A stretch of DNA of 64,000 nt from Escherichia coli. GTDB taxonomy: Bacteria; Pseudomonadota; Gammaproteobacteria; Enterobacterales; Enterobacteriaceae. Under the pieces are notes generated by a model. The model worked only from the letters and a program-made list of their open reading frames with translations, did no database searches and was not told the origin of the DNA. The number at the start of each line of letters is the position of its first letter. Within the stretch, counting starts at the first letter, position 1. Below are positions 1 through 891 of this stretch, one piece after another. The stretch is from assembly GCF_013315695.1 (NCBI RefSeq), contig NZ_CP054353.1; one strand, written 5' to 3'. Made by a program: the position numbers and the translations under genes.

Positions 1-280
1 AAAAACGCTCCACTCGCTGGCGCATGGGGCAGGGCGTAAATGGGGGCGCACCGAGTGTAAAGGGCGTCTGGCAGCGAAATACACGGCGACGCAACTCTCG
101 CGTACTGAACTTGGCAGTCGGGTAATTTGTCGCGATAAACAACTCATCTTTGAAGAAGCGCCACAAGCCTATAAATCGGCTGAAAGCGTGGTGCAATGTC
201 TGGTGCAGGCCGGTTTAATTATTCCTGTCGCGCGGCTGCGTCCGGTGCTAACGCTCAAAAACAATGGAGAAAAAGGATGA
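1..280 (+). CDS. 3' end of an RtcB-family RNA ligase paralog (partial, runs off window start)
   Basis: Open frame ending at TGA 278-280, overlapping the prfH ATG (ATGA); translation contains an HGAGR-type motif characteristic of RtcB; the rtcB-prfH pairing is known. Confidence 0.5.
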
Positions 281-891
281 TCTTGCTACAACTCTCCTCA
301 GCTCAGGGGCCGGAAGAATGTTGCCTGGCAGTGAAAAAGGCGCTGGACAGGTTGATTAAAGAAGCTACCCGACAAGACGTCGCGGTAACGGTGCTGGAAA
401 CAGAAACGGGTCGCTACTCTGACACACTGCGTTCGGCGCTGATTTCTCTGGATGGCGATAACGCATGGGCTCTAAGCGAAAGCTGGTGTGGCACTATCCA
501 GTGGATTTGTCCGAGTCCGTATCGGCCTCATCATGGGCGCAAAAACTGGTTTCTGGGCATTGGGCGTTTTACCGCTGATGAGCAGGAACAATCCGACGCG
601 ATCCGTTATGAGACGCTGCGTTCGTCGGGGCCGGGCGGTCAACATGTCAATAATACCGACTCGGCGGTACGCGCCACGCATCTGGCATCCGGTATTAGCG
701 TGAAGGTTCAGTCAGAGCGCAGTCAGCATGCTAACAAACGGCTGGCGCGATTACTGATTGCCTGGAAGCTGGAACAACAGCAACAGGAAAATAGCGCGGC
801 GCTGAAATCGCAGCGGCGAATGTTCCATCACCAGATTGAACGTGGCAACCCGAGACGGACATTTACAGGGATGGCTTTTATCGAAGGATAA
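277..891 (+). CDS. prfH: peptide chain release factor homolog PrfH
   Basis: Translation from internal Met [14 protein letters not shown]...; GGQ motif present ([17 protein letters not shown]); ORF track 196..891. Confidence 0.8.

Follow-up and report, generated by a model that had tools for sequence, protein, structure and literature searches.

In this work, we found that the window (the whole 64,000-nt stretch of Escherichia coli DNA that was analyzed) opens inside rtcB2, which encodes an RNA ligase of the RtcB family, and runs directly into an intact prfH and then the convergent pepD. The features of this locus are as follows.

2..280, plus strand: 3' end of rtcB2, codons 287-378 and the TGA stop, with translation open from base 2
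23..25, plus strand: CAT codon for the catalytic His294 of RtcB2, in the motif LAHGAGRK
266..269, plus strand: GGAG Shine-Dalgarno sequence for prfH, 7 nt before its ATG and within the rtcB2 tail
277..891, plus strand: prfH from ATG to TAA, 204 codons and stop (RefSeq CDS WP_000602125.1)
366..374, plus strand: TACCCGACA, the right-hand 9-bp repeat of the K-12-type deletion, located by BLAST of L001 against L002
634..642, plus strand: GGQ motif of PrfH (G120, G121, and Q122), encoded as GGT GGT CAA
652..654, plus strand: Asn126 of PrfH, encoded as AAT, where nearly all PrfH have Lys (GGQHVN-K-T)
904..935, both strands: GC-rich hairpin between the convergent prfH and pepD, found by folding

A preliminary description of this DNA had reported prfH as open for 204 codons with an intact GGQ motif, and both points hold (ORF at 277-891; GGQ at residues 120-122). 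The product scored 326.6 bits against the NCBIfam model TIGR03072 release_prfH (cut-off 166.65), with residues 2-201 aligned on profile positions 1-200 of 200, and fell well under the cut-offs for RF2 (prfB model, 92.8 versus 370 bits) and RF1 (prfA model, 81.9 versus 423 bits). The sole Pfam domain is RF-1, which carries the GGQ (residues 106-194). The best PDB match is 7SA4 chain 8, the PrfH of E. coli ATCC 25922 on a damaged 70S ribosome (PMC9304027); this 204-aa chain matches over its full length at 202 of 204 residues, the two differences being K20 and N126, where 7SA4 has R and K, respectively. The GGQ is invariant across 44 PrfH representatives, and Q122 is the residue that was mutated as Q122E and Q122N (PMC9304027). 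The protein ends at the same residue as the 7SA4 chain and has no basic C-terminal tail, which places it in the EcPrfH subfamily. Its family membership is defined by the TIGR03072 score above cut-off, the GGQ, a length of ~200 aa lacking domain 1, and the adjoining RtcB2 gene. A longer ORF of 231 codons from ATG 196 was not accepted as the start of prfH: it shares 82 nt with rtcB2 in a different frame, the TIGR03072 match covers the 204-aa form from its second residue onward and lends the extension no support, RefSeq annotates the start at 277, and it is the 204-aa form that fits the solved protein end to end.

The stretch starts 860 bases into rtcB2, so codons 1-286 lie upstream and outside the window. 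The 92-residue fragment of RtcB2 aligned on positions 288-377 of 379 in NF007153 (RNA ligase RtcB family protein) with 152 bits (E = 2e-44) from these 92 residues only, against a cut-off of 407 for the full length. It also matched positions 343-425 of 426 in Pfam RtcB and aligned to the end of TIGR03073 release_rtcB. The His294 motif aligns with HGAGRK of the solved Thermus RtcB. This histidine is invariant among nine Escherichia/Shigella RtcB2 sequences and is the residue changed (H294N) to inactivate the enzyme in the functional study (PMC9304027).

As had been noticed earlier from the letters alone, the prfH ATG overlaps the stop of the RtcB-like frame: the rtcB2 TGA (278-280) and the prfH start share ATGA (277-280), and the upstream frame is open from base 2. 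The same 4-nt overlap was found in Citrobacter, Klebsiella, Salmonella, Cronobacter, Pragia, and K. aerogenes, and the gene order dinB/yafP...rtcB2-prfH followed by pepD-gpt-frsA is kept in five of these six, with Pragia as the exception. Downstream of prfH, the hairpin at 904-935 folds at -25.1 kcal/mol on the plus strand and -27.1 kcal/mol on the minus strand (z = -6.1 and -6.6 against shuffles, respectively) and probably acts as a bidirectional transcript end. It has no clear T-run and was therefore missed by the consensus terminator scan of 1-1100, which returned two weak sites inside rtcB2, at chance level. The consensus promoter scan of the same 1-1100 interval gave zero promoters, and an Rfam search of window positions 1-947 gave no match.

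The completeness of rtcB2 beyond base 1, which the preliminary description had left for the upstream sequence to show, was assessed from the nearest genomes. Positions 1-947 are 100% identical to E. coli MSB1_4I (NZ_LR898874.1), the closest genome; the identity extends base for base over 1-6947, and positions 14001-64000 are 99.95% identical. The RtcB2 fragment is identical to the end of a 378-aa CDS in MSB1_4I. The rtcB2 of that genome has 378 uninterrupted codons, scores 639.9 bits against NF007153 over the full profile length, and sits between yafP and prfH with the same ATGA overlap. The 10 next-closest complete genomes (at least 99% identity) carry an uninterrupted 379-aa rtcB2, and among them IAI39 has both genes annotated as intact. 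All 11 genomes at or above 99% identity span the whole 1.75-kb operon in one piece. Because the identical and closest genomes carry a complete rtcB2, an upstream truncation in the source genome appears very unlikely.

Among 5426 complete E. coli genomes, the operon is full-length in 2674, or about half, where full-length means that at least 80% of the 1748-bp operon is held. The remaining genomes have the K-12-type deletion or further deletions, and most of them cover 42% of the operon. The K-12-type deletion removes 1024 bp from rtcB2 codon 67 to prfH codon 30. Its breakpoints were mapped by BLAST of the intact locus (L001) against the K-12-type locus of a laboratory strain (L002), which gave two alignments sharing 9 bp where they meet. 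The ends lie in imperfect 9-bp direct repeats, namely TACCCGGCA at rtcB2 codons 67-69, outside the window, and TACCCGACA on the prfH side; the matches of deleted genomes begin at query base 366. In K-12-type genomes the remnants are joined out of frame, and in the laboratory strain both genes are annotated as partial pseudogenes. The earlier statement that this locus is degraded in K-12 was correct (PMC1586002, PMC9304027). Baranov et al. (2006) described K-12 and O157 as having lost ~1000 nt and CFT073, UTI89, and 042 as having intact genes (PMC1586002), and our mapped deletion agrees with that work and with Tian et al. (2022). Since about half of the complete genomes carry the full-length operon, the intact pair is ordinary among E. 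coli and nothing special to this strain.

The allele itself has two peculiarities, neither of which breaks a frame. At PrfH position 126, the 44 cluster representatives, drawn from many genera, have Lys in 41 and Thr in two, both of them Pseudomonas; Asn occurs in this sequence only. RF1 has Thr at the equivalent position. The K126N replacement is the sole amino-acid difference from the PrfH of strain E10, against 15 synonymous differences. The N126 codon context was found in 11 of the 5426 complete E. coli genomes, including IAI39 and CE10, by use of a 55-nt query centered on the codon, which seeds only where that base matches. The exact N126 protein is present on at least 1000 contigs of a large collection. 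K126N is thus a stable allele of the lineage. The second peculiarity is a private 3-nt in-frame deletion in the rtcB2 tail between 269 and 270 (usually GGAGGGAAAAAAGG, here GGAGAAAAAGG), found by alignment with IAI39 and E10. It is common to the window and MSB1_4I and absent in the ten closest genomes besides MSB1_4I. The RtcB2 tail reads ...NNGEKG here and ...NNGGKKG or ...NSGGKKG elsewhere, and GGAG is still 7 nt from the prfH ATG despite the deletion.

Comparison with E10 gave 15 synonymous and one non-synonymous changes in prfH (dN/dS 0.02) and 38.5 and 12.5, respectively, in rtcB2 (dN/dS 0.09), with dS of 0.11-0.16 for the two genes. By these ratios, both genes are under strong purifying selection.

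Taken together, these genes are best read as the known RtcB2-PrfH ribosome rescue-and-repair operon. From the intact prfH, the catalytic motifs, and the complete rtcB2 in relatives, we infer with a probability of roughly 0.87 that the strain keeps the capacity to survive ribosome damage. The preliminary description had referred to repair or rescue of damaged ribosomes as a proposed role; the role stands, and the word "proposed" does not, since it was demonstrated experimentally in 2022 (PMC9304027, PMC9223846). The evidence published then for rescue by PrfH and re-ligation of 16S rRNA by RtcB2 was obtained in vitro, in vivo, and by cryo-EM (PMC9304027, PMC9223846). The PrfH of ATCC 25922 hydrolyzes peptidyl-tRNA on damaged ribosomes only, and Q122E or Q122N abolishes its activity (PMC9304027). 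ATCC 25922 lacking either gene is sensitive to colicin E3, H294N in RtcB2 largely abolishes protection, and K-12 BW25113 is sensitive regardless (PMC9304027, PMC9223846, PMC13166195).

The steps of the mechanism are taken from published experiments on an E. coli protein of almost the same sequence. Colicin E3, CdiA-CT(ECL), and similar toxins would cut 16S rRNA between A1493 and G1494, in the decoding center, and the ribosome would stall. PrfH, a release factor lacking domain 1, would read no stop codons and would enter the A site of the damaged 70S ribosome, where its GGQ loop would hydrolyze peptidyl-tRNA such that the ribosome can be dismantled. RtcB2 would re-ligate the cut 16S rRNA via a His294-GMP intermediate.

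Upstream of rtcB2 and outside the window, the yafP-rtcB2 spacer (in L001, ~0.9-1.0 kb before base 1 of the window) varies far less among E. coli strains than the synonymous sites of rtcB2 do. The spacer holds a 15-codon ORF (MTNPLSMTLCRPFQD) that has a strong ribosome-binding site (AAGGAGGT) and starts 113 nt from rtcB2. Citrobacter, Klebsiella, Salmonella, Superficieibacter, Cronobacter, Pragia, and K. aerogenes likewise have a 15-codon leader with a ...LCRxxQ[D/E/G] end. The leader is 13 codons long in Kangiella, Orbaceae, Pseudoalteromonas, Delftia, and two Pseudomonas, and other short ORFs precede the operon in Neisseria, Massilia, Paucibacter, and a Lentisphaeria genome. The tally is a 13-15-codon ...LCR... 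ORF in nine genera and related 13-19-codon ORFs in seven more. In the scan of genome contigs with a PrfH pattern, most of the 80 loci listed were RF1/RF2 relatives and only L013-L025 were usable. A G-to-C change private to MSB1_4I alters the invariant GCAG of its leader (Cys10Ser; L001 position 5059).

RNAalifold of eight Enterobacterales leaders predicted four helices, given below together with the extended pairings used in the switch model that follows.

P0: GCAAAG:CTTTGC by RNAalifold; GCAAAGG:CCTTTGC in the switch model
P1: (GC)AGAC:GTCT(GC) by RNAalifold; GCAGAC:GTCTGC in the switch model
P2: CCAGG:CCTGG by RNAalifold
P3: GCCAnnTC:GAWTGGT by RNAalifold, just 5' of the rtcB2 ATG; GCCAnnTCC:GGAWTGGT in the switch model

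With the invariant GCAG and CTGC as anchors for the arms of P1, pairs 1-6 were standard in 14 of 14 taxa, and pair 5 took five types (GC, AU, CG, GU, and UG). The P1 covariation score was 0.299, compared with 0.145 +/- 0.03 in shuffles (0/500), and it collapsed when the partner was slid by 1-3 columns. The single-sequence fold of the MSB1_4I leader was no better than shuffles (z = -0.03); the evidence for structure is therefore the comparison across taxa and not the energy. An Rfam search of the leader region gave no family (best 20.7 bits versus a threshold of 60).

In the switch model, P0, P1, and P3 would each overlap the next by two bases, and P3 would cover the ribosome-binding region of rtcB2. 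A ribosome halted at the leader start would favor the middle helix P1, by which rtcB2 would be opened. When ribosome footprints were masked in folding, the unpaired probability of the rtcB2 start region increased from ~0.25-0.33 to 0.41-0.49 in four Enterobacterales; no such rise was seen in Klebsiella, Kangiella, or Pseudomonas. These folds modestly fit a switch between P0 plus P3 (off) and P1 (on) in four of five Enterobacterales and are suggestive only. Two other arrangements were considered. An ermC-type model, with a second segment pairing with the anti-Shine-Dalgarno, was dropped because the segments are not complementary, and P1 plus P2 as an intrinsic terminator was judged unlikely, because the logic would be inverted relative to P. 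aeruginosa.

A parallel is available in P. aeruginosa, in which armZ (PA5471) is followed by PA5470 (prfH) and PA5471 was modeled on RtcB and belongs to cluster PRK09588 (PMC3516279, PMC3575510, PMC13041342, PMC12057347). PRK09588 is NF007153, the model that also names E. coli RtcB2. The armZ operon is controlled by a 13-aa leader peptide, PA5471.1, through ribosome-stalling attenuation (PMC13041342, PMC3516279), and ykfJ of K-12 has been reported as inducible by 4-azaleucine (PMC3516279, PMC3575510, PMC13041342, PMC12057347). Judging by the shared order of an RtcB-family gene and prfH, the common PRK09588 cluster, and the attenuation by PA5471.1, the enterobacterial leader is most likely the counterpart of PA5471.1. 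A more tentative proposal by analogy, to which we give a little less than even odds, is that a leader-peptide attenuator would sense stalled or damaged ribosomes and turn on E. coli rtcB2-prfH, as with armZ-PA5470. The two main E. coli RtcB2-PrfH papers mention neither ArmZ nor PA5471 and discuss neither a native promoter nor a leader, and searching the literature text for the leader peptide sequence gave no paper.

Other readings of the locus have to be weighed against a working toxin-repair operon. The frames may be intact and the module nonetheless weakened or decaying in this lineage, with K126N, the 3-nt deletion, and the leader mutation jointly lowering activity or induction. K126 is indeed near-invariant, with N in this allele alone among the 44 representatives and in only 11 of 5426 complete genomes (IAI39 and CE10 among them), and its change is the sole non-synonymous one beside 15 synonymous. 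Moreover, the 3-nt deletion, which the ten closest genomes lack, touches the prfH ribosome-binding region, and MSB1_4I alters the G of a leader GCAG that is invariant in 14 taxa. However, Thr126 in two Pseudomonas PrfH indicates that non-basic residues are tolerated, and the occurrence of the N126 protein on at least 1000 contigs indicates that the allele persists. The GGAG at 7-nt spacing is still a good ribosome-binding site, the deletion is in frame and falls in the variable C-terminal tail of RtcB2, and there are no stops or frameshifts. We regard decay of the module as unlikely. It is highly improbable that rtcB2 is truncated or frameshifted upstream in the source genome, leaving prfH an orphan. 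Part of the operon has been lost in about half of E. coli genomes, and across the 64 kb the window departs from MSB1_4I in ~27 small changes that include indels. Nevertheless, the first 6947 bases are identical to MSB1_4I, whose rtcB2 is complete, the bases up to 365 that the common deletion takes are retained here, and 11 of 11 genomes at or above 99% identity span the whole operon.

The remaining alternative concerns function: the main role may be a general relief of ribosomes stalled by drugs or stress, as for ArmZ and PA5470, instead of the repair of toxin-cut 16S rRNA. In P. aeruginosa, PA5470 was reported to relieve macrolide-induced stalling, and ribosome-targeting drugs induce the armZ-PA5470 operon (PMC12057347, PMC3516279). 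The reported 4-azaleucine induction of K-12 ykfJ and the presence of the same kind of leader before the E. coli operon would fit such a role. Against this, in vitro assays with intact ribosomes gave no peptide release by E. coli PrfH, and the decoding-center cut was the only one that RtcB2 repaired (PMC9304027, PMC12829566). The PrfH here also lacks the basic tail that enables the Capnocytophaga subfamily to act on intact ribosomes (PMC12829566). By analogy with P. aeruginosa, general relief as the main role has an outside chance at best, and we retain rescue and repair after cleavage of the decoding center as the preferred reading.

If so, carriers of the intact pair should withstand colicin E3-type and CdiA-CT(ECL)-type toxins better than K-12-type strains do, which is relevant to competition between gut E. 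coli. The system and its intact state were already known, and the finding adds no new biology, because the function was established in 2022 and about half of the complete genomes have the pair intact. What is added here is the exact breakpoints and microhomology of the K-12-type deletion, the rare K126N allele by the catalytic motif that is common to IAI39 and CE10, and an enterobacterial operon with a leader ORF and putative RNA switch of the armZ kind, which joins two literatures that, in the papers checked, make no reference to one another. As an extension of a known kind, the leader observation is modest, and it concerns sequence outside the window. If the attenuator is real, ribosome damage would itself induce the repair system, and this lineage would carry natural variants of it (leader G-to-C, PrfH K126N, and the 3-nt deletion).

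Among known systems, the closest is RtcB2-PrfH of ATCC 25922, which has the same chromosomal site, a 204-aa PrfH, His294, and the ATGA overlap; its RtcB2 has 379 aa, compared with 378 aa in MSB1_4I due to the 3-nt tail deletion. The ykfJ'/prfH' pair of K-12 occupies the same locus between yafP and pepD, and its remaining parts are 96-97% identical. That pair lacks 1024 bp, whereas the window retains the undeleted right-hand junction. The PA5471.1-armZ-PA5470 locus has, like here, an RtcB-family gene followed by prfH and a short ...LCR... leader ORF in conserved helices. The leader has 13 aa in Pseudomonas and 15 aa in Enterobacterales. In P. aeruginosa it was reported to lie ~250 bp upstream and to act on transcription, whereas the E. 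coli leader starts 113 nt from rtcB2 and its last predicted helix extends over the ribosome-binding region of rtcB2 and is not followed by a T-run. ArmZ of P. aeruginosa has also gained a role as MexZ anti-repressor, which is a difference from E. coli RtcB2.

RtcB (RtcB1) of rtcBA has fold and chemistry in common with RtcB2 (Pfam PF01139; the HGAGR histidine). The two have a reported identity of only 28% and mutually exclusive substrates, and RtcB1 is reported to be under sigma-54/RtcR control (PMC9304027). RtcB1, unlike RtcB2, has no release-factor partner. The GGQ domain of PrfH is common to RF2, RF1, and ArfB, and PrfH aligns with RF2 residues ~115-305. [quoted passage not shown] The Capnocytophaga-type PrfH chain has 231 aa and a basic C-terminal tail, compared with the 204 aa of the PrfH found here (PMC12829566).

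The prfH allele in the window carries a K126N substitution (window 652-654) that adjoins the GGQHVN motif and is the sole non-synonymous difference from a common prfH allele. This codon context was found in 11 of the 5426 complete genomes, including those of the E. coli strains IAI39 and CE10. Upstream of it, an in-frame 3-nt deletion at window 269/270 lies in the rtcB2 tail and the ribosome-binding region of prfH; it is shared with MSB1_4I (NZ_LR898874.1), the strain with the closest genome, and is missing in the ten next-closest complete genomes. In a large contig collection, 61 contigs encode exactly this 378-aa RtcB2. 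In the search of complete E. coli genomes, rtcB2-prfH matches were also observed at 15 places on plasmid records rather than chromosomes.

The window is not an exact copy of the MSB1_4I sequence, with 27 small differences that all lie past base 6947. Three of these are in 6948-14000, and the other 24, among them 1-nt indels at 23782, 38039, and 60048, are in 14001-64000. The window derives either from a very closely related strain or from a separate assembly within the same lineage. This part of the window contains two islands, several insertion sequences, and small RNAs:

8784-8859, tRNA-Thr(CGT), 3' of proA
9025-21626, phage-like island of ~12 kb after this tRNA gene, with a tyrosine integrase first
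12921-12998, isrK (Rfam), in the phage-like island
13061-13148, C4 antisense RNA (Rfam), in the phage-like island
21641-22338, IS1 copy
25144-25841, IS1 copy
31177-31377 (-), IS009 RNA between ykgJ and yagU (full-length Rfam match, 193 bits)
32752-45798, second island, adjoining yagU
32752-34029, tyrosine integrase of the second island
35891-37119, IS2, in the second island
41222-41503, PerC-family regulator, in the second island
43693-45798, hypothetical gene of 701 aa, one of several hypotheticals in the second island
45863-46560, IS1 copy
63495-64000, IS1 copy

Judging by its position, the tRNA gene is thrW. The phage-like island encodes an antirepressor and a TOPRIM/DUF927 primase and also has an Ash-family gene and a DNA-ejection gene with a frameshift; its end is truncated by the first IS1. 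For an 87-aa prophage ORF (13791-14054, minus strand), RefSeq gives the name "nicotinic acetylcholine receptor subunit beta" in MSB1_4I, a label that is almost certainly spurious. The second island includes a gene labelled "phage baseplate protein" and, compared with MSB1_4I, has nine additional bases at 41540-41548. Of the four IS1 copies within these 64 kb, the second abuts an ecpC that lacks its N-terminus (25898-28180); ecpR, ecpA, and ecpB therefore appear to have been lost, with ecpC'-ecpD-ecpE remaining.

Outside the window, about 0.86-1.0 kb 5' of its first base, the yafP/rtcB2 spacer of MSB1_4I has a conserved 15-codon leader ORF, MTNPLSMTL[C/S]RPFQD, with a strong SD (positions 5016-5143 of the MSB1_4I locus, L001). 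This ORF occurs in 16 genera and is accompanied by the covarying helices P0, P1, P2, and P3. MSB1_4I has a private G-to-C change at L001 5059, which converts leader codon 10 from TGC to TCC and disrupts the first G-C pair of P1 and one P0 pair. The GCAG that starts the 5' arm of P1 is invariant in 14 taxa, and the G at this position is retained in IAI39, E10, and the K-12-type strain. In JCL301, a K-12-type strain, an insertion of ~129 bp that may represent an ERIC/IRU repeat separates the leader hairpins from the rtcB2 start (positions 3658-3786 of its locus, L002); this insertion is missing in MSB1_4I, IAI39, and E10. The leader had no match in Rfam, and no mention of it was found in the E. 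coli RtcB2-PrfH papers that were consulted. Among known systems, it is probably the counterpart of PA5471.1, the 13-aa leader peptide that acts as the attenuator of the armZ(PA5471)-PA5470(prfH) operon in P. aeruginosa.
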